A stretch of 64,000 nt of DNA from an uncultured Actinomycetes bacterium (lineage in GTDB: Bacteria; Actinomycetota; Thermoleophilia; UBA2241). The notes beneath the pieces are model-generated. The model worked only from the letters and a program-made list of their open reading frames with translations. It was not told the DNA's origin and made no database searches. The DNA lies in NCBI GenBank assembly GCA_963753695.1, contig CAVWDG010000009.1, positions 73,975 to 137,974 on the forward strand. Reading direction: 5' to 3'. Below are positions 35,930-54,139 of the stretch, piece by piece. How positions within the stretch are numbered: the first letter of the stretch is position 1; the number at the start of each line of letters is the position of its first letter. The translations under genes were made by a program, and so were the position numbers.

Positions 35930-37615
35930 ATGGACGACCAAGAGTACCGTAGGGAATATGGCCAGCACCTTGTAGAGCAGGTCATCAACGGCCAGATGAC
36001 CAGGCGCCAGCTGCTCGTGCGCGCTTCGGTCTTTGGCCTCTCCGCCACCGTCGTCGGCTCGCTCCTCGCAGCGTGCGGCAGCTCCGGCGGCTCGTCCGCG
36101 ACGTCGCCCTCGGCGGCCGCCAGCGGTAGCGCCCTTCCGCCCGTCGTCACCGGCGGCACGCTGAAGGCAGTCATTCCGCCGCCGCTCAAGACGCTCGACC
36201 CGGTCACGATCTACGACCAGGGCGGCATCGTCATGGTCTACCAGATCGCCGAGTACCTGATCGACCTCTCCAACACCAACGCCCTCAAGCCCAAGCTCGC
36301 TCTCAGCTGGACTCCCAACCAGAAGGGCGACGTCTGGACCTTCAATCTGCGCCAGGGCGTCACGTTCAACGACGGCACTCCCTTCGAGGCCGCCGACGTG
36401 GTCGCCAGCATCGAGCGCGTGATCAACCCCAAGAGCGGTTCGGGCGCCCTCGCCGCCCTCGCCGGCATCCTCTCGCCGGGCGGCACCAAGGCCACCGACA
36501 CGCACACCGTGACCTTCAACCTCGACAAGCCCTTCGCCGACTTCCCGTACCTGGTGAGCTCGTCGTCGTACAACACGGCCATCCTGCCGCGTAACTACGC
36601 CGGCGACTTCCAGAAGAAGCCGATCGGCACCGGCCCCTGGATGGTCAAGACCTACGTCCCCAACCAGCACGCCGATCTCGTCAAGAACCCGACCTACTGG
36701 GGCAAAGACGCTCAGGGTCGCCAGCTGCCGTACCTCGACGGGCTCAACTTCGCGTTCGTCACCGACACCTCGGCCGCCAACCTGCAGCTCCAGTCGGGCG
36801 CCGTCGACGTGCAGCCGCAGACCGTGTTCCAGGGCGGCGCGTCGGTGCTCAGCGATTCCGCTCTGCGCGTCGACGTCTACCCGTCCAGCGGTATCCGCGA
36901 GGTCGCCTTCAACGTCACCAAGGCGCCGTGGACCGACAAGCGCGTCCGCCAGGCCGTGGCGTACAGCCTCGACCGCAAGGCCATCAACCAGGCCCTCTAC
37001 GGCGGCCGCAGCAACCTCGGCTACGACACCTTCTGGGAGCCGGCTGTCTTCCCGGGCAGCCCGCCCTCGACCGTGCGCACCCAGGACTACGCCAAGGCCA
37101 AGTCGCTGCTCTCTGCAGCCGGCCACACGAGCCTCGACGTCACGCTGACCGTGGCCAACTACCTCGAGAACCCGGCCTACGCGCAGCTCATCCAGGCGCA
37201 GTGCAAGCCGGCCGGCATCAACGTCAAGATCAACGAGATCAGCTACAACGCGATCTACGCCGGCACCAACGCCACCACGCCGTGGCTGAACGCGCCGATG
37301 GTCATCGTCGAGTGGGGCAGCCGGCCTACGCCGGGCGTCTACGCTCAGGCCATGCTGCTGCCGACCAGCGCCTGGAGCTCCTCGCACTGGAACAACCCGG
37401 CCTTCGTGAAGGCCTTCAACGCGTACGAGTCGACCACCGACGAAGCGAGCCGCACCACGCTGGCCACGCAGCTCTCCTCGATCCAGCAGGACGACACGCC
37501 GATCCTCGTGGCGTTCTACATCTCGCAGCTGCGCACCCAGAAGAAGAACGTCTACAACATCCAGGGTCCGGGCTCGTTCTACTTCGACGCCAGCCAGGCC
37601 TACATCACCAAGTGA
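35930..37615 (+). CDS. ABC substrate-binding lipoprotein (family 5, Dpp/Opp-like), Tat-type signal
   Basis: TRRQLL twin-Arg, LAAC lipobox, WTFNLRQGVTFNDG, PIGTGPW. Confidence 0.92.
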   Translation: MDDQEYRREYGQHLVEQVINGQMTRRQLLVRASVFGLSATVVGSLLAACGSSGGSSATSPSAAASGSALPPVVTGGTLKAVIPPPLKTLDPVTIYDQGGIVMVYQIAEYLIDLSNTNALKPKLALSWTPNQKGDVWTFNLRQGVTFNDGTPFEAADVVASIERVINPKSGSGALAALAGILSPGGTKATDTHTVTFNLDKPFADFPYLVSSSSYNTAILPRNYAGDFQKKPIGTGPWMVKTYVPNQHADLVKNPTYWGKDAQGRQLPYLDGLNFAFVTDTSAANLQLQSGAVDVQPQTVFQGGASVLSDSALRVDVYPSSGIREVAFNVTKAPWTDKRVRQAVAYSLDRKAINQALYGGRSNLGYDTFWEPAVFPGSPPSTVRTQDYAKAKSLLSAAGHTSLDVTLTVANYLENPAYAQLIQAQCKPAGINVKINEISYNAIYAGTNATTPWLNAPMVIVEWGSRPTPGVYAQAMLLPTSAWSSSHWNNPAFVKAFNAYESTTDEASRTTLATQLSSIQQDDTPILVAFYISQLRTQKKNVYNIQGPGSFYFDASQAYITK

Positions 37616-39493: not shown

Positions 39494-41682
39494 GCGTCGT
39501 GGACCGGCCCGTCGTCCCCGAGGGACCGACGCCGCCGGCGCTCGACGTCCACGACCTCGAGGTCACGTTCCATCGGCGCGGCCGCGACCTGCCGGTGCTG
39601 CGCGGCGTCACGCTGCACATCAAGCCGGGCGAGGCCTACGGTCTGGTCGGCGAGTCGGGCTGCGGCAAGACCACGCTGGCCATGGCGGCCCTGCGCTACC
39701 TGGCCGCCAACGGCACCGTCGACGCCGGCAAGGTGTCGGTCGAGGGCCGCGACGTGAGCACGCTCTCAGACGAGGCGCTGCGCAAATGGCGCGGCGAGGC
39801 CGTCTCCATGGTCTATCAAGACCCGGCCACGGCGCTCAGCCCCGCCATGCGCGTCGGCGACCAGGTCGCCGAGGTCTTCCGCTACCACGAGGGCCTGCCC
39901 AAAAAAGAAGCGTTGATCCGCGCCCGGGAGAGCCTGCGCAAAGTCGCGCTGCCCGACCCCGACGCCACCATGCGGCGCTACCCGTTCGAGCTCTCGGGCG
40001 GCCAGCAGCAGCGTGTCGTGATCGCCATGGCGCTGGCCGTGAACCCCCACCTGCTGGTGCTCGACGAGCCCACCACCGGGCTCGACGCCACGGTCGAGGC
40101 CGAGATCCTCGACCTGATCGAAGAGCTGCGCGGCCGTATTCACGCCGCCATCCTGCTGATCACCCACAACCTGGGCCTGGTGGCGCGCCTTTGCGAGCGC
40201 GTCGGCGTGCTCTACGCCGGGCGCCTGGTCGAAGAAGGGCCGGCGCACCAGATCTTCACCGACCCGCGCCACCCCTACACCATGGGGTTGCTGCGCTGCG
40301 TGCCGAAGTTCGGCATGAACAAGACCGACGCCGCGTTGCAGACCATCCCCGGCACGCTGCCGGCGCTGGGCGAGCCGCTCGACGGCTGCGTGTACTCGGC
40401 GCGCTGCCCGGTGGCCAAGCCGGTCTGCACCAGGCGCGAGCCTGACCTCTTCGCCTGGCCCAGCGATGCGCCGGCCGAGGGGCGCGCGTGGGCCGAGGCG
40501 CAGCCGCCCGACCCCGCCATGTTCTCGCCGCATCACTCCAACCCCGTGGGCGATGCCGCCCGCCATTCGCGCTGCTATTTCGCCGCTGATGTCCCCGACA
40601 TGCCGCACGGCACGCCCGTGCTGGCCACGAGCCTCGAAGTCCGGGTAGGCACGGTCGGCGACGTGCTCGACATCGAATCGATGCGGCGCAGCTTCAGAGA
40701 CGGCAGCAAGAGGCTGACGGCCGTGAGCGACGTCTCGCTTAGCCTGCGCCGCGGCGAGACCTTCGGCCTGGTCGGCGAGTCGGGCAGCGGCAAGACCACG
40801 CTGGCCAAGTGCATCACAGGCCTGATCGCCGCCGACTCCGGCACGGTCACCTTCGAGGGTAAGCAGCTGCGCTCCACCGCGGGCCGCCGCTCGCAAGAGG
40901 CGCTGCGCGCCATCCAGATGGTCTTCCAGAACCCCGACTCCACGCTCAACCCCGCCTGGAGCACGCGCGCCATCCTCACGCGCGCGGTGCGCAAGCTGGG
41001 CAGCGGCGGCGGGGTGCGCGCCAAGGTCGACAAGCTCTCCGCCGACGTGCGGGTCGAGCCGCGCTTTTTGGCGCAGAAGCCCACCGACCTGTCGGGCGGC
41101 CAGAAGCAGCGCATCGCCATCGCGCGCGCCTTCGCCGGCGACCCCACCCTCGTGGTGTGCGACGAGCCCGCGTCGGCGCTCGACGTCTCGGTGCAGGCGA
41201 GCATCCTCAACCTGCTCGTCGAGCTGCAGACCAAAGAGCAGGTCTCGTATGTCTTCATCTCGCACGACCTGGCGGTCGTGCGCTACATCTCCGACCGCAT
41301 CGGCGTTATGTACCTGGCCGAGCTGATCGAGGTGGGCTCGGCCGACGAGGTCTTCAACGCGCCGCACCACCCCTACACCGAGGCGCTGCTGTCGTCCATT
41401 CCCAAGCTCGAGTTCGGCGTGGAGCAGCAGCGCATACCGCTGCGCGGCTCCATGCCCAGCCTGAGCGAGCCGCCGACCGGCTGCCGCTTTCACACCCGCT
41501 GCCACAGGTTCCTCGGCGACATCTGCGTGCAACAGGAGCCGCCGCTGCAGGAGCCGGCCAGCGGCCACACCTACAAGTGCCACATCCCGCCCGACGAGCT
41601 CCTGGCCGCCCAGCTGATCACCGCGGGCGCTTCGGCGACGCCCGATCCTGCGGGCGAGCCCGGCGGGCCCAGCGACTCCTAG
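39490..41682 (+). CDS. Fused DppD/DppF ABC ATPase
   Basis: Two NBDs (GESGCGKT and GESGSGKT; LSGGQ twice) with C-terminal Cys motifs; ATGA overlap. Confidence 0.92.
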   Translation: MSVVDRPVVPEGPTPPALDVHDLEVTFHRRGRDLPVLRGVTLHIKPGEAYGLVGESGCGKTTLAMAALRYLAANGTVDAGKVSVEGRDVSTLSDEALRKWRGEAVSMVYQDPATALSPAMRVGDQVAEVFRYHEGLPKKEALIRARESLRKVALPDPDATMRRYPFELSGGQQQRVVIAMALAVNPHLLVLDEPTTGLDATVEAEILDLIEELRGRIHAAILLITHNLGLVARLCERVGVLYAGRLVEEGPAHQIFTDPRHPYTMGLLRCVPKFGMNKTDAALQTIPGTLPALGEPLDGCVYSARCPVAKPVCTRREPDLFAWPSDAPAEGRAWAEAQPPDPAMFSPHHSNPVGDAARHSRCYFAADVPDMPHGTPVLATSLEVRVGTVGDVLDIESMRRSFRDGSKRLTAVSDVSLSLRRGETFGLVGESGSGKTTLAKCITGLIAADSGTVTFEGKQLRSTAGRRSQEALRAIQMVFQNPDSTLNPAWSTRAILTRAVRKLGSGGGVRAKVDKLSADVRVEPRFLAQKPTDLSGGQKQRIAIARAFAGDPTLVVCDEPASALDVSVQASILNLLVELQTKEQVSYVFISHDLAVVRYISDRIGVMYLAELIEVGSADEVFNAPHHPYTEALLSSIPKLEFGVEQQRIPLRGSMPSLSEPPTGCRFHTRCHRFLGDICVQQEPPLQEPASGHTYKCHIPPDELLAAQLITAGASATPDPAGEPGGPSDS

Positions 41683-41785: not shown

Positions 41786-42832
41786 CTAGTCTCTCTCGAC
41801 TTCGCCGTGCGCGTCGACCAGCGCCGCCAGTTCCTCGATCACAGCAACGCCGTCGTCGACGACCACGGCGTCGGCATTGCGCGTGATCGTGGCGTGATCG
41901 TCTGAGTTGATCGCGGCGATGAAGGCGGCGCGCTCTATGCCCCAGTGCAGCGCCGGCGCGCCTGACGCCCCGACCACCAGGCAGACCGCCGGGGCGGTGC
42001 GCGTGCCAGAGACCCCGATGAGCCGCTCCATGGGCGCCCAGGCGTTCATGACAACCGGCCGGCTGACGCCGAAGTCGGCTCCCATGCGCTGCGCGGCGCG
42101 CGCGATGCGCCCAATGCCCTCAGGACCGGCGGCCCCGTAGCCCGCGACCACCACGAAGCGGCTGTCGGCCAGGCCGCCGGTCGGCGGCCTGGCCACGAGC
42201 TCGACATCGCTCCACGGCTCGGGTCCGGCGTCGCCGGGCGCGCCGGGCGCCGCGCTGTCGGACAGCAGTTCGTGGGCGATCGGGGCGACGGGGCGGGCGT
42301 CGTTCCACGAGGCGTCGATGACGGCGCACCACGGCCGGCGCGAGAGCTCGAAGCGGCCCACCATGTGGTTGGAGTAGACGTTGGCGCGCGCCTGCAGGCG
42401 CGGGCTTGCCGGCTGCGCGTCGTGCGCGCCGGCGAGCTCGGGATCGTGCGCCCCGGCAAGCTCGGCGTCGAGCACGCCGGTGAGCACGGCGCCGTCGCTG
42501 CGGCAGGCCAGGCGTGTGAACAGCTCGGCGCCCCAAGGTCCGGCGGGCGCCAGAAACAGGTCGACCTCGCCGCCGCGGGCCTCTGCCAGAAGGCTCTCGG
42601 CCATGAGGTCGGGGCGCCGCGGCGCCGCTCGCACGAGCCGCACGTCGCGCGTGGGCGCGAGGGCCACCAGCCCCTGCGCCTCGCGGTCGTCGGCCACGAA
42701 GATGACGGTCTCGCCGGTGAGGTCGTCCGTCGGGATGTCGGCCGTGAGACCGTCGGCCAGGAACGCGGCCAGCGCGCGCGCCTGGCGCGGCGCCGTGGCC
42801 GACGTGCCGTCGATGAGAGCGGCGAACCTCAC
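41786..42832 (-). CDS. etfA: ETF alpha subunit (FixB/YgcQ-like, divergent)
   Basis: VVVAGYG, GVSRPVVMNAW, IGVSG..TAP, IAAINSD. Confidence 0.8.
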   Translation of the reverse strand: MRFAALIDGTSATAPRQARALAAFLADGLTADIPTDDLTGETVIFVADDREAQGLVALAPTRDVRLVRAAPRRPDLMAESLLAEARGGEVDLFLAPAGPWGAELFTRLACRSDGAVLTGVLDAELAGAHDPELAGAHDAQPASPRLQARANVYSNHMVGRFELSRRPWCAVIDASWNDARPVAPIAHELLSDSAAPGAPGDAGPEPWSDVELVARPPTGGLADSRFVVVAGYGAAGPEGIGRIARAAQRMGADFGVSRPVVMNAWAPMERLIGVSGTRTAPAVCLVVGASGAPALHWGIERAAFIAAINSDDHATITRNADAVVVDDGVAVIEELAALVDAHGEVERD

Positions 42833-43749
42833 CGCGCCTCAAGCAGCGCGCGCAGGTGAGCGTCGTAGAGGAGTCGCGCCTTGTCGCGCGGCGTGGCGCC
42901 GTCGACGACGAGCCCGGGCCGGGCGCGATCGACCACTTCGAGACCCCGCAGAGTCGTCGGCTCGCGCTCGAGCGCGGCGGCCACGTCGACCCCCAGCTCG
43001 CCCGCGGCGACGATCGCCACCGGCTTGTCGCGTTGTGCGAGGCGGTCGCGCAGGGTCGGCACGCGCAGGTGCGACACCACCGCGTTGCCGACGGCCAGCA
43101 CGACGGGGCCACGCACAGTGAGGCGTACGAGCCCCTCGTCGGTCGTGCAGGCCACCCGCAGGCCGCCACCGGCCAGCGGCTCGACCTCGGTGACCTGGCT
43201 CAGACAGGGCCAGCCGAGCGCTTCGGCCACCCGGAACGGCACCGTGCCGCCGTCGCCCGGCCCGCTGCGGCAGCCGAGCAGCAGAAGGTCGCAGGGCTCG
43301 CGCCGCGCGACGTAGCGCGCGATGAGCGGCGCCACCACGGACGGGGCGAAGTCGAGGTCGGACTCGACGTCGAGCCGGGCCGCGCGTTCGTAGCCCAGCG
43401 CGAGCAGCGTGGTGAGGTGGGGGTCGCACTCGCGGCCGCCGATCGACAGCGCCGCCAGGCTTGCGCCGCCGCCGCGCTGCGCGACCGAGTCGGACAGGCG
43501 CAGCGCCAGCTCGAGGGCGCTCTCGTCGAAGCAGTTGAGCACGCGGCGCACGTAACGCGTCGCTACGCGCGGCGCGATGGCCGCGGCCCCGGCGCCGGCG
43601 GCCGCAACGCCCGGCCCCACGGCCTGCGCGGCCCCGGCGGCCCAGTCGGCCGCGCGCAGCGCCTCGAAGTCGGGGGTCACCTTGAACGACACGAGCACGC
43701 GCAAGGGGCTCGGTGAGCCCGGAGCGCGCGTGTCGCCCGTGCCGCTCAC
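42829..43749 (-). CDS. etfB: ETF beta subunit (FixA/YgcR-like)
   Basis: VSFKVTPD, LNCFDESALELALRL, LLGCRSGPGDGGTVP..AEALGW; GTG overlaps the upstream TGA. Confidence 0.82.
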   Translation of the reverse strand: MSGTGDTRAPGSPSPLRVLVSFKVTPDFEALRAADWAAGAAQAVGPGVAAAGAGAAAIAPRVATRYVRRVLNCFDESALELALRLSDSVAQRGGGASLAALSIGGRECDPHLTTLLALGYERAARLDVESDLDFAPSVVAPLIARYVARREPCDLLLLGCRSGPGDGGTVPFRVAEALGWPCLSQVTEVEPLAGGGLRVACTTDEGLVRLTVRGPVVLAVGNAVVSHLRVPTLRDRLAQRDKPVAIVAAGELGVDVAAALEREPTTLRGLEVVDRARPGLVVDGATPRDKARLLYDAHLRALLEAR

Positions 43750-45188
43750 AGCGGAAAGATCGTCCCCACGTTCATGATGCCGGCGGGGTCGAAGGCCGTC
43801 TTGAGCGTCTCGAGGATGTAGTAGGAGGAGCCGTACTCCTGCTTCACCCACGGCGCCCGCGCCTTGCCCATGCCGTGGTGGTGCACGATCGAGCCGCCGC
43901 GCTTGAGGGTCTCCTCGCAGATGATGGCGATGATGGGCAGGTAGTACTTGTCGGTCTCGTGCTCGGGGCCCACGCCGACCACGTTGAAGAAGTAGTTGAA
44001 GTACATGTTGGTGCCGTTGATGTAGCTGTGCGACGAGTGACCGCCCATCATGGTGATGTCGGGGATCTCGGCGATGATGCGCGCCCGCGCCGCCTGGTAG
44101 ATGTCGTTGATCGAGCCCCAGTCGGCGGAGATCTCGGTGGTGCGGTTCACGTTGTGGGTCTGGCGGATGCGGTCGTCTTCGGCGGTGATCTTGCTCGCAT
44201 CCCAGCAGAGGTCGTTGAACCAGGTCTCGATGTAGGCGCTGTCGACCGGCGTGCACTCCGGGTGGCGTGCGACGATCTCGGCGATGCCCTCGGCCGTCGC
44301 CTCGGCGATCCCGGCGGGGCCCTCGGCCATGAAGAGCAGCACGCAGTCGTCGGGGGCGGCGAAGTGCGAGAAGTGGATGCCGGCGTCGCCCGGGTCGTAG
44401 ACCCGCGCCACCGACGGTTTGTAGCCGTTCACCATGACGTCGCGTAGCGCCTCGAAGCCGACCTTCATGTCCTTGAGCGTCCAGCCGAGGAACGTGTTGT
44501 TGGCGGGGAAGTACGGGAAGAGCTTCACCGTGACCTCGGTGATGAAGCACAGGGCGCCCTCGTTGCCGATGACGACGTGGCGGATGTCGGGCCCAGCGGC
44601 GCGGCGCGGCACGTTCTTGATGCGCGTCACGGCGCCGTTGGGGAAGACCGCCTCGAGGCCGACGACCATGTCTTCGATGCCGCCGTACAGCGTGGAGAAC
44701 TGCCCGATGCTGCGTGTCGCCACGAGCCCGCCCATGTGGGCCACCGGCTTTGACTGCGGGGAGTGGCCCGTGGTGAGCCCCAGCTCGCGCGCGCGGTCTT
44801 CGAGCGCCTGCAGCGGCACGCCGCACTGACAGGTGGCCTGCATGTTGTAGGCGTCGATACTGACGATCTCGTTCATGGCGGAGCCGTCGATGATGATCGA
44901 GTCGGGTACGGCGCTCTCGAGGCCGCCCTCGGTAGCCGTGCCGCCGGTGCGCGGTATGACGTTGATGCCGTGCTCGCCGGCAAAGCGCAGGACCGCGGCG
45001 ACCTGTTCGGCGCTGCGCACCATGGCGATCGCGGCCGGCACCGGCATCGTGTGCACGTCGAAGATGTTCTGCAGCTTGCGGAAGTTGTCGACGCTGCTCT
45101 GCACGAGGATCTTCTCGTCGGTCACGACGTCGGCGGGCGCGACGACGCGCCGCAGGCCCTCGGCGATGCCCTCTCTGCTCAGGTCCAT
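43746..45188 (-). CDS. FAD-linked oxidase/alkyl-DHAP-synthase-like (YgcU-like)
   Basis: PRTGGTATEGGLE, GHSPQSKP, TRSIGQFSTLYG, HSSHSY, HHHGMGK. Resembles E. coli YgcU (recalled, not searched). Confidence 0.88.
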   Translation of the reverse strand: MDLSREGIAEGLRRVVAPADVVTDEKILVQSSVDNFRKLQNIFDVHTMPVPAAIAMVRSAEQVAAVLRFAGEHGINVIPRTGGTATEGGLESAVPDSIIIDGSAMNEIVSIDAYNMQATCQCGVPLQALEDRARELGLTTGHSPQSKPVAHMGGLVATRSIGQFSTLYGGIEDMVVGLEAVFPNGAVTRIKNVPRRAAGPDIRHVVIGNEGALCFITEVTVKLFPYFPANNTFLGWTLKDMKVGFEALRDVMVNGYKPSVARVYDPGDAGIHFSHFAAPDDCVLLFMAEGPAGIAEATAEGIAEIVARHPECTPVDSAYIETWFNDLCWDASKITAEDDRIRQTHNVNRTTEISADWGSINDIYQAARARIIAEIPDITMMGGHSSHSYINGTNMYFNYFFNVVGVGPEHETDKYYLPIIAIICEETLKRGGSIVHHHGMGKARAPWVKQEYGSSYYILETLKTAFDPAGIMNVGTIFPL

Positions 45189-45257
45189 GGTGGCGATCCT
45201 TTTTCTACTCGCTTGGTGTGTCGGACTGTACGGCCGGGCCGGTCTCTGATGCCCTGG

Positions 45258-48802: not shown

Positions 48803-50263
48803 CTACTGGTGTCGCGCGCGACGGATGTCGTCGGGGCCTGCCTGGCAGATGGCGGCCAGGCCGTCGATCTGCTCGTCGCTCAGGCAGGGCTCCTTGGCGG
48901 CATGCGCGGCCAGCAGGCGCTCGACCGTGTCGCAGGCCACGTCGTTCTCGGTGCGGCCCTCTTCGAGCCACTTGTCGTAGGAGAGGCGGTTCGACACGCC
49001 CGGTTGCAGGTGCTCGCCCGCGCGCACGCGGCGCGCCGTGTCTTTCTCGCCGAGAAAGCCGCCCCCCGGACCCACCCGGGCGATGGACTCGGCGGCCAGC
49101 GTGGCGTCGGAGACCTCGACGTCGCCGTAGAGGCGGCGCACCATGGCGGCGATCTCGTCGTCGACGACCGACTGCGGGAGGTACATGGTGTTGTGCGAGT
49201 CGATCAGGCCCCAGCCCGTGACGATGTCGGGGTTGGCGCTGCACACGCCGGCTGCCTTGAGGGCCTTCTCGTAGCCGGTCTGCAGCCCCGCATGCTTGCT
49301 GTCGGTCGACAGCCCGGGACTCAGCGTGGGCACGCCCACGTAGTGGCCGACCTCGGTGGCCATGGCGGCCATGAGGGCGCTCTCGACACAGCCCAGCGAG
49401 AAGGTCGTGCGCAGCATGTCGAGCACGCCGGAGCCAAAGCAGAAGATGAGCCGCGCCCCGGGCGCGGCGACCTGCAGCGCGGTGGCGACGCCCAGGAACT
49501 CGGCGAGCCCCTGCACGACCGAGCCGGCCAGCGTGACCGGCGAGGTGGCCCCGGCGATCGTCATGGAGTAGACCTCGATGGGTATGCCCAGGGCGGCCAG
49601 CGCGACGTGCACGTCGAGCACCGGCCCTTCGACCTGGAGCGGCGAGGCGGCCGTGCAGACCGTCGAGAAGCGCGGCCGCTCGCGGAACGCGTCGAGGCTG
49701 CCCGAGAGCACCTCGCAGATGCGCACGACCGCGTCGACCTCGTTGGGGCAGTCGACGAAGGTCACGTGCTGCGCGGTCTCGGTGAGCATGGTGAAGTACT
49801 CGATGAGCTCGCGGCGCTCGAGCGCGACGTCGGTGGCGCTGACCTGGGTCCACATGAGATCGAGCTGCGGGAGCTCGTCCATGAGCGCCGTGCACTCGCG
49901 CAGGTCCTGCAGCGTGCTGGGGCGGCGCGCGCCCGTGCGAAAGTCGAGCGTCTTGGCGACGCAGCCGCTGGGCGCAAAGCGGAACTGCTGGTCGGCGCCG
50001 ATCAGGGCGTCGTCGGCCGGCGTGGCGCCGGCCATCGTGAAGGAGCGTGGACACTGGGCGATGGCCCACTCGACCAGCTCGCGGGGCAGGCGGACGATGC
50101 CGGTGGCCTCGTCGACCTGGGCGCCGCGCGCGGCCAGCAGGGGCAGCACGCGAGAACCGGCCAGGCGCATGCCCACCGTCGCCAGCAGGTCGATGGCCTG
50201 GTCTGCGATGCGGCTCTTCTCGTGCTCTGAGAGCCACGCGGTCCGTGCCTTCACAAGCCTCAC
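48803..50263 (-). CDS. Non-pyrrolysine MttB-superfamily methyltransferase
   Basis: GATSPVTLAG, PGLSTDSK (Ser at the Pyl-equivalent position), QTGYEK; no internal stop; GTG 50263. Confidence 0.88.
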   Translation of the reverse strand: MRLVKARTAWLSEHEKSRIADQAIDLLATVGMRLAGSRVLPLLAARGAQVDEATGIVRLPRELVEWAIAQCPRSFTMAGATPADDALIGADQQFRFAPSGCVAKTLDFRTGARRPSTLQDLRECTALMDELPQLDLMWTQVSATDVALERRELIEYFTMLTETAQHVTFVDCPNEVDAVVRICEVLSGSLDAFRERPRFSTVCTAASPLQVEGPVLDVHVALAALGIPIEVYSMTIAGATSPVTLAGSVVQGLAEFLGVATALQVAAPGARLIFCFGSGVLDMLRTTFSLGCVESALMAAMATEVGHYVGVPTLSPGLSTDSKHAGLQTGYEKALKAAGVCSANPDIVTGWGLIDSHNTMYLPQSVVDDEIAAMVRRLYGDVEVSDATLAAESIARVGPGGGFLGEKDTARRVRAGEHLQPGVSNRLSYDKWLEEGRTENDVACDTVERLLAAHAAKEPCLSDEQIDGLAAICQAGPDDIRRARHQ

Positions 50264-50382
50264 ACACCTTCCCTCGGGCCGCAGTCCGCGCGCCGGTGCG
50301 CGGGCTTGGCGGCGGCCCGCGCGGCGCGTCCGCAGGGACCGTTCGCAGGGCACGATGTCACCAGCCTCAGGCGGTGTCAACC

Positions 50383-50509: not shown

Positions 50510-51082
50510 ATGATCAGAGTGGGGCAGGCCCCCTTCGGCACGGTCGCCATGGACGAGCTCGACCGCGGCATCATGCAGCTGCTGCGTCCCAACGCGCGGC
50601 GCTCCTATGCCAGCGTCGCGCGCGCCCTCGGCGTCTCCGAGCCCACGGTGCGCAACCGCGTCGACCGCCTCATCGCCAAGGGCGCCATCTTTCAGCGGGC
50701 GAGCGTCAACCCCGCGGCCATCGGCCTCCCCGTCGATGCCATGGTCGGCATCCGCGTGAACCGCGGGTACTCCAAGGGGGTGGGCGCGCGCCTCGCCGCC
50801 ATGGAGAACGTAGCCTACGTGGGCTACACCACAGGCTCGTTCGACATCCTGATCGAGGCGCACCTGCCCGACAACGAGGGCCTCTACAAGTTCTTGAACG
50901 AGGACCTCGAAGAGATCGAGGGCGTGGCCTACACCGAGACCTGGCACATCCTGCGCACCGACAAGACCAACATCGAGTGGGAGGGCGAGATGGTCGGGCA
51001 CGCCCCCATCGAGGTCGTCGACGACCTCGAAGCGGGCACCGCCGACGCGACGGCCGACGATCTCGAACCGGCCGGCGCCTGA
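50510..51082 (+). CDS. Lrp/AsnC family regulator
   Basis: MDELDRGIMQLLRPNARRSYASVARALGVSEPTVRNRV; TTGSFDILIE. Confidence 0.92.
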   Translation: MIRVGQAPFGTVAMDELDRGIMQLLRPNARRSYASVARALGVSEPTVRNRVDRLIAKGAIFQRASVNPAAIGLPVDAMVGIRVNRGYSKGVGARLAAMENVAYVGYTTGSFDILIEAHLPDNEGLYKFLNEDLEEIEGVAYTETWHILRTDKTNIEWEGEMVGHAPIEVVDDLEAGTADATADDLEPAGA

Positions 51083-51199: not shown

Positions 51200-52618
51200 G
51201 TGACGATCGAAGGACGGGTGCCGACCCGCATGGGCGACGGCACCTTCGTACGCCTGACGCGCAGCGAGATCAAAGCCGATCTCGTGGCCGGGTCAGAGGC
51301 GGCGGCCAAGCGGGCCAAGGTGCCCCCGCTGCACGGACGACGAGCTGGACCACCTGCTCGACATCTACGCCTCGTCGGCGCGCTTCACCGGCGTCGACAT
51401 AGGCGACGAGATCGTGCTCAGCTGCGACGGCACCGGCATGAAGACACACGCCACCCGCATCCAGGACCTGCAGACCTACGAGCAGTGGATGGGCGCCGAC
51501 CTGCTCGAGCTGTGCGTGGGCGACTACTCGCTCAAGGTCGTGCGCACCAACCTCGCCTACGAGGCGCAGTACATGCACGACGCCCAGCTCTGCACGGTGG
51601 CGCCGCTGCAGTACGGCGTGATGCCCAACCTGGGCCTCTACTCCAAGCCCGACGGACCCGTGCGACAACTGGAACGAGCTGCTGCCGCTGGGCCGCATCG
51701 ACGAGGCCCGCGCGTCGCGAAGAAGAGGCCGTCGAGATGGCCGTCGTCGACATGGTCGACCTGGCCGACACGCAGTGACGAGGCCGGCGCCGACGCCATC
51801 GACTGGGACACCACCGGCGCCTCGGGCGACCCCGAGTTCCTGGCCGCGCCTCAAGGCCGACCGCCATCATCCGCGAGAAGTACCCTGACCTTGGCATCCA
51901 GCTCGGCATGGCCGGCGAGTTCGTGCTCGGCATGCACGGCCAGCTCGAGTACGAGGGCGTGCGCCTGGCCGGCCTGTGGCCCAAAGACCAGCTGCTGCTC
52001 GCCCAGAAGGCCGGCGCCACCATGTTCGGACCGGTCGTCAACGTCAACACCGGCAAGACCTGCGCCTGGAACATCGCCCGGGCGATCGCGCTCGTCAAGC
52101 CGTGCATGGACGTGGCCGACGATCCCGGTGCACATGAACGCCGGCATGGGCGTCGGCGGCGTGCCGATGTTCGTGCACCCGCCGGCCGACGCCGTCTGCC
52201 GGGCGGCCAAGTCGTGCGTCGACATCCTGCACGCTCGACGGCTTCTAGGTAGGCTCGGGCGATCCGCACGGCATGCACAGTGCGCACGCGCAGGCGGCGG
52301 GCATGGGCGGAATGCGAGCAGCCGGAGATCTGGTGGCTCGCATGCAGATGACCCGCGGAATGCGTTTGAAAGAGGCCAAAGAGTACGTCGCCGGCAAGCT
52401 CGGCGTGACGCCGTTCGACCTGTCCGACCCCGTCGCCATGACCGACGTGCGCAACGAGTTCGGCTTTGGCCGCATCCACAGCTACGCGATCCGCCAGCCG
52501 CGCGCAGGCCAATCAGATCGAGGCCAAGTTCAACATCGCGCGCGTGCTCGACATGCCCATCAACTGCGTCGAGCGCTTCAAGGAACGTACGACGCCGGTC
52601 GCCGGCGGCGTGCGCTAG
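51200..52618 (+). CDS. mtbB: Dimethylamine:corrinoid methyltransferase MtbB with in-frame amber (putative Pyl); many apparent indels
   Basis: GGGAGGGG SD plus GTG; TRMGDG, PNLGLY..PDGP, LGMAGEFVLGMHG, PVVNVNT, HMNAGMGVGGVPM, LDGF-TAG-VGSGDP..MRAAGDLVARMQ..EAKEYVAGKLG. Confidence 0.88.
52312..52343 (+). promoter_or_regulatory. Candidate PYLIS-like stem-loop 3' of the mtbB amber codon
   Basis: ATGCGAGC-A-GCCGG-AGAT-CTGGT-G-GCTCGCAT, 13 bp including 2 G-U pairs; 63 nt after TAG. Confidence 0.5.
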
Positions 52619-52644: not shown

Positions 52645-54139
52645 ATGATTCGCAATCCACGCGCCGGCGCGCGCAAGAGCGGCGGCTTTCGGCTCGAGGT
52701 GTTCACCGACGACGAGCTGCGCGAGATCCACCTCGCGACGCTCGAGGTGCTCGGCCGCACCGGCGTGTTCGTCGAAGACGACGAGGCGCTCGAGATCTTC
52801 GCCCAGGCGGGCGCCGACATCGACCGCGAGCGTCGCGTCGTCTGCCTGCCGGCCCACCTGGTCGAAGACGCGGTCGACGCCGCGCCCTCCACGGTCGTGC
52901 TCTGCGGGCGCGACCCGGCCAACGATGTGGTCCTAGAAGACGGCCGCGTCGGCTTTACCAACTTCGGCGAGGGCATCCAGGTCGTCGATCCCTACACAGG
53001 CGAGCTGCGCGAGTCGCGCAAGGCCGACGTGGCCGACTGCACGCGCCTGATCGACGCCCTGCCCGAGATCGACGTGGTCGAGCGTCCCCTCGGGGCGCAC
53101 GACGTGCCGCCCGGACACGGCGGCCCTGCACAATGCCGAGGCGATCTTCTCGAACACCACCAAGCACGCCACCATCGGCCCGCTGTCGGGCTTCTGCGCG
53201 GTCAAGATGATCGACATGGCGGCCGCCATCGCGGGGGGCCGCGACAGCTTGCGCAAGCGCCCCATCCTGTCGTTCCTCACCTGTCCGGTGAGCCCCCTCA
53301 AGCTCGTCGCCGACGCCTGTCGCATCATCATCGAAGGGGCCCGGGCCGGAGTGCCGGTCAACGTGCTGTCGATGGCCATGGCCGGCGGCTCGTCGCCGAT
53401 CAACCTGGCCGGCACGCTGGTCACCCACAACGCCGAGGTGCTCGCCGGCATCACGCTGGCCCAGCTCACCGTGCGCGGCGCGCCCGTGATCTACGGCTCG
53501 TCGACCACCGCCATGGACCTGCGCTACGCGAGCGCGTCGGTGGGCAGCCCCGAGTGCGGCATGATCGGCGCCGGAGTCGCCTGCCTGGCGCGCTTCTATC
53601 TGCTGCCCAGCTGGGTCGCCGGTGCGTAGGGCGATGCCAAAGTGGCGGACGCTCAATCCGGTCACGAGAAGACACTCACCAGCCTGCTACCGGCGTTGGC
53701 AGGGGCCAATCTGATCTATGGGCTGGGGATGTTGGAATCGGGCGTCACCATCGACTACGCGCAACTCGTCATGGACGCCGAGTTCGCGCGCATGATCAAA
53801 TTCTGCGTGCCGGGCATCGCGGTCAACGACGCGACCCTGTCGGTCGACGTCATCGCCGAGATCGGCCCGTTCAGCGACTTTCTCTCGCACGACGACACCT
53901 ACCGCGGCATGCGCGGCCAGTCGCGCTCCAAGCTCATCGACCGGCGGGTCCGCGAGGAGTGGGTCGCCGCCGGCTCGACGACGATCTACGAGCGCTCGCG
54001 TGCCGAAGCCTGCCGCCTGCTCGAGACCCACCAGCCGCAGCCCCTGCCCACCGAGGTGGCCGCCGAGCTTGCCGCCATCATCGCGGCGGCCGAACGGGAG
54101 CTCGGGGTGGGGCAGGGCGCAGAAGACCGCGTAGGGTAA
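52645..54139 (+). CDS. mttB: Trimethylamine:corrinoid methyltransferase MttB with in-frame amber (putative Pyl); one apparent indel near 53110
   Basis: [89 protein letters not shown]. Same frame on both sides of TAG; ends at TAA; about 497 codons. Confidence 0.93.
53683..53703 (+). promoter_or_regulatory. Candidate PYLIS-like stem-loop 3' of the mttB amber codon
   Basis: CCTGCTA-CCGGCGT-TGGCAGG, 7 bp stem; starts 54 nt 3' of TAG. Confidence 0.42.

Follow-up and report, generated by a model that had tools for sequence, protein, structure and literature searches.

The reference point for the gene described here is the dimethylamine:corrinoid methyltransferase MtbB of Methanosarcina (TIGR02368 / PF09505 'Dimeth_PyL'). 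The gene that we analysed resembles it in its full-length family match, its single in-frame UAG and its RF02509 RNA element. By contrast, the host here is a bacterium (Thermoleophilia, 70% G+C) whose methyl acceptor would have to be linked to tetrahydrofolate rather than to coenzyme M, and the motif reads LDGF-O-VGSGDP where the archaeal consensus in the Rfam model is UAG-AUA-GGU-GUC-GGC-GAC-CC, or O-I-G-V-G-D-P. A split PylSn and PylSc is known from bacterial pyrrolysine (Pyl) systems such as those of Desulfitobacterium hafniense and Acetohalobium arabaticum.

The canonical mtbB structure has already been described (Have et al. 2013, PMC3639795). The two Rfam elements of that work, RF02509 and RF02510, both match at this locus at full length, each from its own TAG; the outer stem found here extends further than RF02509, and a recoding function is putative for both elements. 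Two Actinobacteria were among the 81 PylRS-encoding bacterial genomes of Guo et al. (2022, PMC9630628). In the part of their paper that we drew on, Ellenbogen et al. (2023, PMC10805028) listed the genus Bog-752 with the bacterial methylotrophs most active at Stordalen Mire and reported that some Actinobacteriota metagenome-assembled genomes (MAGs) express Pyl-encoding mttB and mtbB, the Pyl genes being recognised by their truncation at the amber codon; the same part makes no mention of a pyl operon, of PYLIS elements or of how many paralogues there are. Compared with the Bog-752 MAGs as presented there, the genome studied here comes from the same lineage but represents another MAG or species, with an mtbB copy that is frameshifted in the assembly.

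Results

The mtbB and mttB genes

We analysed a window of 64,000 nt, the whole stretch C9:73975-137974, from an assembly of 2.13 Mb (16 contigs, 70% G+C) with a CheckM-type completeness of 61.7%. Judged by its sequence, the segment 51200-54139 of this window is a genuine Pyl-type mtbB followed by a Pyl-type mttB, in a MAG predicted to decode pyrrolysine (Table 1). The mtbB gene starts at the GTG at 51200, with a GGGAGGGG ribosome-binding site ahead of it, and stops at the TAG at 52616-52618. All matches of the upstream Lrp/AsnC-family regulator to the AsnC/Lrp/LysM models of NCBIfam lay under the equivalog cut-offs. The divergent MttB-superfamily open reading frame on the opposite strand is intact and encodes 525 aa. 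About 20 more MttB-superfamily paralogues without a Pyl TAG were seen on contigs C2, C4, C6, C11, C12, C14, C15 and C16, some of them also split across frames.

Table 1. Coordinates of the features at the mtbB-mttB locus (window positions) and of the clusters of frameshift-like junctions named in the text (contig positions)
Feature	Position	Strand	Basis or content
MttB-superfamily methyltransferase, divergent, no TAG (non-Pyl type)	48803..50380	-	TIGR02369, 323.7 bits (cut-off 525)
Lrp/AsnC-family transcription regulator, directly upstream of mtbB	50510..51082	+	NCBIfam AsnC/Lrp/LysM models
mtbB, dimethylamine:corrinoid methyltransferase gene	51200..52618	+	Three-frame reading and DNA alignment to G002/G004
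mtbB pyrrolysine codon, in-frame TAG	52246..52248	+	Orthologue column; start of RF02509
PYLIS_2 (RF02509), RNA element after the mtbB pyrrolysine UAG	52246..52345	+	65.7 bits (gathering score 36)
Stem-loop within the mtbB coding sequence	52289..52364	+	Folding energy, covariation
mttB, Pyl-type trimethylamine:corrinoid methyltransferase gene	52646..54139	+	TIGR02369, 727.7 bits (cut-off 525)
mttB pyrrolysine codon, in-frame TAG	53627..53629	+	Alignment to 7XCL
PYLIS_3 (RF02510) match in mttB	53627-53726	+	72 bits (gathering score 38)
Junction cluster, gyrB	C14:16217-17420		10 junctions
Junction cluster, relA-hisS stretch	C13:98187-99832		10 junctions; hisS split over four frames
Junction cluster, rpsD-rpoA	C10:54173-55956		7 junctions
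Junction cluster, ahcY	C9:68300-69473		9 junctions

An earlier, sequence-only reading of this DNA had called the gene mtbB, had placed a TAG in its frame and had equated that TAG with the pyrrolysine codon, and our data bear out all three points. The frame reads LDGF*VGSGDPHGMHSAHAQAAGMGGMRAAGDLVARM across the TAG (asterisk), with RAAGDLVARM downstream. With the nine inserted bases described below omitted and K placed at the TAG, the frame-restored protein scored 423 bits on the MtbB equivalog model TIGR02368 (cut-off 369.1), in a full-length alignment that extends across the TAG; the pieces of the frame as assembled reached at most 106 bits, below that cut-off. Among 14 control genomes, TIGR02368 found a match in Methanosarcina acetivorans only. 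RF02509 ('pyrrolysine insertion sequence mtbB') matched over model positions 1-100 of 100 (E = 7e-15), position 1 being the T of the TAG, and 88 distinct related genes have a TAG in the same column; because of this match and these 88 codons, the TAG is no chance stop. All eight translated orthologues (8/8) read LDGL*VGSGDPHGMH. MtbB homologues were present in 25 of 41 related genomes, and virtually all full-length matches had exactly one internal TAG. Among the 120 matches listed by a homologous-protein search there were only 346-aa fragments, whose end at the TAG column is in keeping with a Pyl codon, and no archaeal MtbB by name. A PDB sequence search with MtbB gave no match; as the PDB holds no MtbB structure, the assignment of the Pyl site in mtbB rests on RF02509 together with conservation in the family.

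The sequence-only reading had left out the Pyl TAG of the adjacent mttB, as well as the pyl genes that the genome carries elsewhere. The mttB product matches the MttB of PDB entries 7XCL/7XCM at 2e-122, and its SWVAGA[TAG]GDAKV aligns with SYVAGS[X]SDAKV of 7XCL, where X, the modified residue, is the pyrrolysine. The RF02510 (PYLIS_3) match is full length and begins at this TAG. Compared with both congeneric genomes G002 and G004, mttB has one inserted base, at 53114.

Pyrrolysine machinery and corrinoid proteins

The genome holds what is, by its matches to curated models, a complete gene set for pyrrolysine decoding and biosynthesis. Aragorn placed a tRNA-Pyl (CUA) at C11 c[39920-39992]. The bit scores were 272.7 for PylSc (TIGR02367; cut-off 178), 125.7 for PylSn (TIGR03912; 51.15), 423.5 for PylB (TIGR03910; 348), 331 for PylC (TIGR03909; 248) and 172 for PylD (TIGR03911; 150). 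The genes on C11 run in the order pylB-pylC-pylD-pylT-pylSn on one strand. Like the bacterial split systems of D. hafniense and A. arabaticum, the genome has separate pylSn and pylSc genes together with pylB, pylC, pylD and pylT. It differs from them in that pylSc lies ~4 kb away on the opposite strand, with a corrinoid-protein gene between it and the pylBCD-pylT-pylSn cluster, and in that TAG makes up ~35% of stops. Indeed, TAG is not avoided: over the whole genome, confident coding segments at least 450 nt long ended in TGA 522 times, in TAG 346 times and in TAA 110 times. Aragorn also placed a tRNA-Sec (UCA) at C11 c[348142-348239], and the 21st amino acid may thus be decoded here as well as the 22nd.

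The corrinoid protein at C11:36586-37430 scored 214.2 bits on TIGR02370 (cut-off 215.3) and 211.6 bits on the MtbC model NF041607 (cut-off 350). Further corrinoid-protein genes are found on C2, C3, C9 and C11, none of them adjoining the window mtbB. Two pairs of these genes are near-identical, gene-length duplicates at loci far apart: C2:37216-37854 and C11:36586-37224 are 99.7% identical, and C11:12681-13342 and C11:385749-386409 are 99.2% identical; one duplicate is the gene between pylSc and the pylBCD-pylT-pylSn cluster. Just outside the window, at C9:138241-142285 (window-equivalent 64267-68311), we noted a corrinoid protein paired with a ~420-440-aa protein, the pair occurring twice in tandem; the larger partner is, from its translation only, a putative uroporphyrinogen-decarboxylase-like (MtaA/MT2-type) methyltransferase. 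With the upstream EtfAB and FAD-linked oxidase genes (window 41794-45198), these pairs may form a methylotrophy island.

Inserted bases in mtbB

As assembled, the mtbB frame is interrupted not only by the UAG but also by nine single-base insertions, at 51332, ~51656-60, 51717, 51777, ~51849-54, 51859, 52118, 52233 and 52501. This count, from alignment to G002 and G004, falls within the 8-10 indels proposed earlier, and the extra base suspected near 52233 is a G at 52233 that is missing from both closest orthologues. Relative to G002 and G004, every one of the nine events adds a single base (+1); there are no deletions, and none of the nine lies in a homopolymer run. The congeneric orthologues in G002 and G004 share 93-94% amino-acid identity with the window mtbB and are single open frames with one TAG each; the window is colinear with G002 over 45 kb and with G004 over ~14 kb. 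The nine insertions fall within 1.2 kb, and elsewhere in the 45 kb aligned to G002 there are ~0.2 isolated indels per kb. At the insertion sites we found no consistent methylation-type motif, several of them lying beside GAC or ACG. Programmed frameshifting in mtbB was rejected, because the nine +1 events are missing from all orthologues.

The sequence-only reading had called for a dN/dS comparison. With the insertions left out, dN/dS of the window mtbB against its orthologues was 0.14-0.16, within the 0.08-0.16 obtained pairwise among intact orthologues. Its own branch carries 17 synonymous and 14 non-synonymous changes, a ratio of 0.82, and the sister branches have ratios of 0.1-0.5.

Frameshifts across the assembly and the second mtbB copy

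A codon-position HMM, calibrated on relatives, counted as a junction each pair of adjacent same-strand coding segments without an intervening stop. It found ~596 frameshift-like junctions in the assembly, or 0.34 per kb coding, compared with 0.08-0.15 per kb when the same scoring was applied to the DNA of relatives. The junctions form 63 clusters, the densest of which are the four in Table 1. The genes gyrB, hisS and rpoA each have one locus in the assembly and are each split over several frames.

Compared with three intact relatives, the second mtbB copy (C2:33564-35000) has ~28 indels, a mixture of insertions and deletions; these indels end at the gene borders, and the neighbouring genes are clean. 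It is followed by an intact Pyl-type mttB (C2:35029-36492, TAG at 36010) and then by two corrinoid-protein genes. The C2 branch carries 20 synonymous and 41 non-synonymous changes, a ratio of 2.05 and near neutral, in a test that is only indicative: the flanks of its best DNA matches, L107 and L108, are not syntenic with C2, so that orthology is uncertain. Among the changes specific to the lineage of the C2 copy, many are conservative replacements that look natural.

An RNA stem-loop after the mtbB UAG

A stem-loop downstream of the mtbB UAG (-44.8 kcal/mol, z = -5.2) was found before Rfam was run. The RAAGDLVAR codons are covered by its inner 11-bp hairpin (52315-52340), which corresponds to the 3' hairpin of PYLIS_2, and its outer stem (52289-52309 / 52343-52364) exceeds the 100-nt PYLIS_2 model and has compensatory changes. 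Across 88 sequences, which are related paralogues and orthologues under coding constraint and ten of which supplied the structure, 90.4% of cells were paired compared with 84.1% in shuffles, 141 cells were changed on both sides compared with 46.8, and the covariation score was 0.183 compared with 0.04-0.065 for slid controls; the relatedness of the sequences and the coding constraint limit what this covariation can tell. The signal was clearest at third codon positions, where the covarying pairs were 78-93, 81-90, 75-96, 58-111 and 60-108. Pair 81-90 was paired in 88/88 with four pair types, pair 78-93 had five types, pair 58-111 was GC in 51, AU in 23, UG in 8 and GU in 5, and pair 60-108 was CG in 64 and GC in 13. 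The hairpin 62-84 nt after the mttB UAG was invariant in 37 relatives and is therefore uninformative on covariation.

Distribution in the family

The closest relatives are MAGs of uncultured Thermoleophilia/Actinomycetes bacteria sampled in soils, in peat and in lake sediments, 'bog_752' and 'palsa_645' among them. The MAG 'bog_752' (PLTW01; G003) belongs to the same genus as the window genome, and its mtbB orthologue is 89% identical. In this family, 24 of 25 genomes have a PylSc that scores above the cut-off, as does one genome from a different family of the class. Nearly all genomes of the family have several TAG-bearing mtbB copies, with up to 16 matches per genome. The earlier statement that Pyl dimethylamine methyltransferases are uncommon in bacteria thus overstates their rarity: a Pyl-type mtbB is the rule, not an oddity, in this lineage, and the trait has already been published for Actinobacteriota.

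Discussion

Probable assembly error and its alternatives

The sequence-only reading had left open whether mtbB is mis-assembled or decaying. On comparative and statistical grounds, we favour assembly or consensus error over decay, with a probability of roughly 85% that includes a chimeric consensus as a sub-type. Four lines of evidence point this way: the orthologues are intact, dN/dS is ~0.15, the events are insertions only, and the essential genes gyrB, hisS and rpoA show the same kind of damage. Since no cell survives ten frameshifts in gyrB, clustered frameshifts are here a property of the assembly, with which the completeness of 61.7% is consistent.

Some doubt comes from the fact that both mtbB copies are local indel hot-spots, which hints at a cause linked to the gene family, for example collapsed paralogues, as the relatives hold several mtbB copies each and the assembly only two; true decay would be another such cause. 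In such a chimeric consensus, reads of mtbB paralogues or of co-occurring strains would have been collapsed or cross-polished at one locus, creating indels and some false substitutions. Some of the relatives' copies are 85-89% identical in DNA, the window and C2 copies are both rich in indels relative to their surroundings, and the natural look of many C2 changes would fit as well. However, the window mtbB lies in a 45-kb stretch that is colinear and syntenic with G002, the nearest paralogues of this copy share only ~63-65% protein identity and are too distant for cross-mapping, and clusters in the single-copy gyrB make paralogy unnecessary. We regard this sub-type as a rather unlikely form of the error, its share being counted within the probability given above.

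A second alternative, which we consider improbable, is that mtbB is a recently inactivated pseudogene, dimethylamine use having been lost while mttB and the pyl genes were retained. The concentration of indels in the window mtbB and the C2 copy, next to genes that are nearly clean, would suit such a loss, as would the ratio of non-synonymous to synonymous changes, which is slightly high on the window branch (0.82) and near neutral on the C2 branch (2.05). Bacterial pseudogenes typically lose DNA, whereas 9/9 events here are insertions. Nine indels against only ~31 substitutions on the branch (17 + 14) is also a large excess of indels over natural decay, which is disfavoured for this reason. 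Furthermore, the overall dN/dS is 0.14-0.16, no premature stop was made by substitution, similar clusters lie in the essential single-copy genes gyrB, hisS and rpoA, and the orthologue is intact in all congeners.

Scarcely credible is the alternative that TAG 52246-52248 is a true stop, which would leave a truncated protein of 348 residues, with the downstream part either not translated or made separately. In its favour, many genes of this genome end in TAG (~35% of confident gene ends) and gene callers record the homologues as 346-aa proteins (fragments ending at the TAG column, in the public calls among the matches listed). Against it, coding signal, amino-acid conservation and purifying selection persist in frame for 123 codons beyond the TAG, the MtbB model aligns in full across it, a PYLIS_2 match follows it, and the predicted pyl machinery of the genome is complete.

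Clustered frameshifts in this assembly are no evidence of pseudogenes, as gyrB, hisS and rpoA are likewise broken. Inferences on gene content or 'decay' from this MAG, and its completeness value of 61.7%, call for caution.

Predicted function of the locus

We propose that the Lrp-type regulator, mtbB and mttB form a functional methylamine-demethylation operon in an uncultured Thermoleophilia bacterium that would read UAG as pyrrolysine. In the cell, mtbB would be a single unbroken frame of ~467 codons whose only UAG is codon 349 (the GTG at 51200 being codon 1). The nine +1 insertions would be absent from the organism itself, having arisen as consensus errors in a metagenome assembly that is patchy and rich in errors. 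The UAG would be read by tRNA-Pyl(CUA) charged by the split PylSn and PylSc, with pyrrolysine supplied by PylB, PylC and PylD; the genes for all of these lie on C11. If the enzymes work like their archaeal counterparts, the Pyl residue would bind and activate dimethylamine (trimethylamine in MttB), and the methyl group would then pass to the Co(I) of the cognate corrinoid protein. The conserved stem-loop after the UAG (Rfam PYLIS_2) may aid read-through.

A further reading, doubtful though conceivable, is that this stem-loop, 41-116 nt after the UAG, is a context signal that separates Pyl-UAG from stop-UAG, and that mtbB paralogues have diversified to other methylated amines. As an equally tentative part of the same reading, UAG-containing mtbB would have multiplied in the family, giving several paralogues in each genome, while TAG still served as about one-third of ordinary stops. 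We speculate that a context signal would be useful to the organism because TAG ends ~35% of confident coding segments.

The window genome adds one member to the small set of Actinomycetota with a predicted complete pyrrolysine system and Pyl-type mtbB and mttB. In a Thermoleophilia lineage that is common in peat, soil and lake sediment, the trait is found throughout the family, and there it matters for what becomes of the methylamines on which methanogens would otherwise feed.
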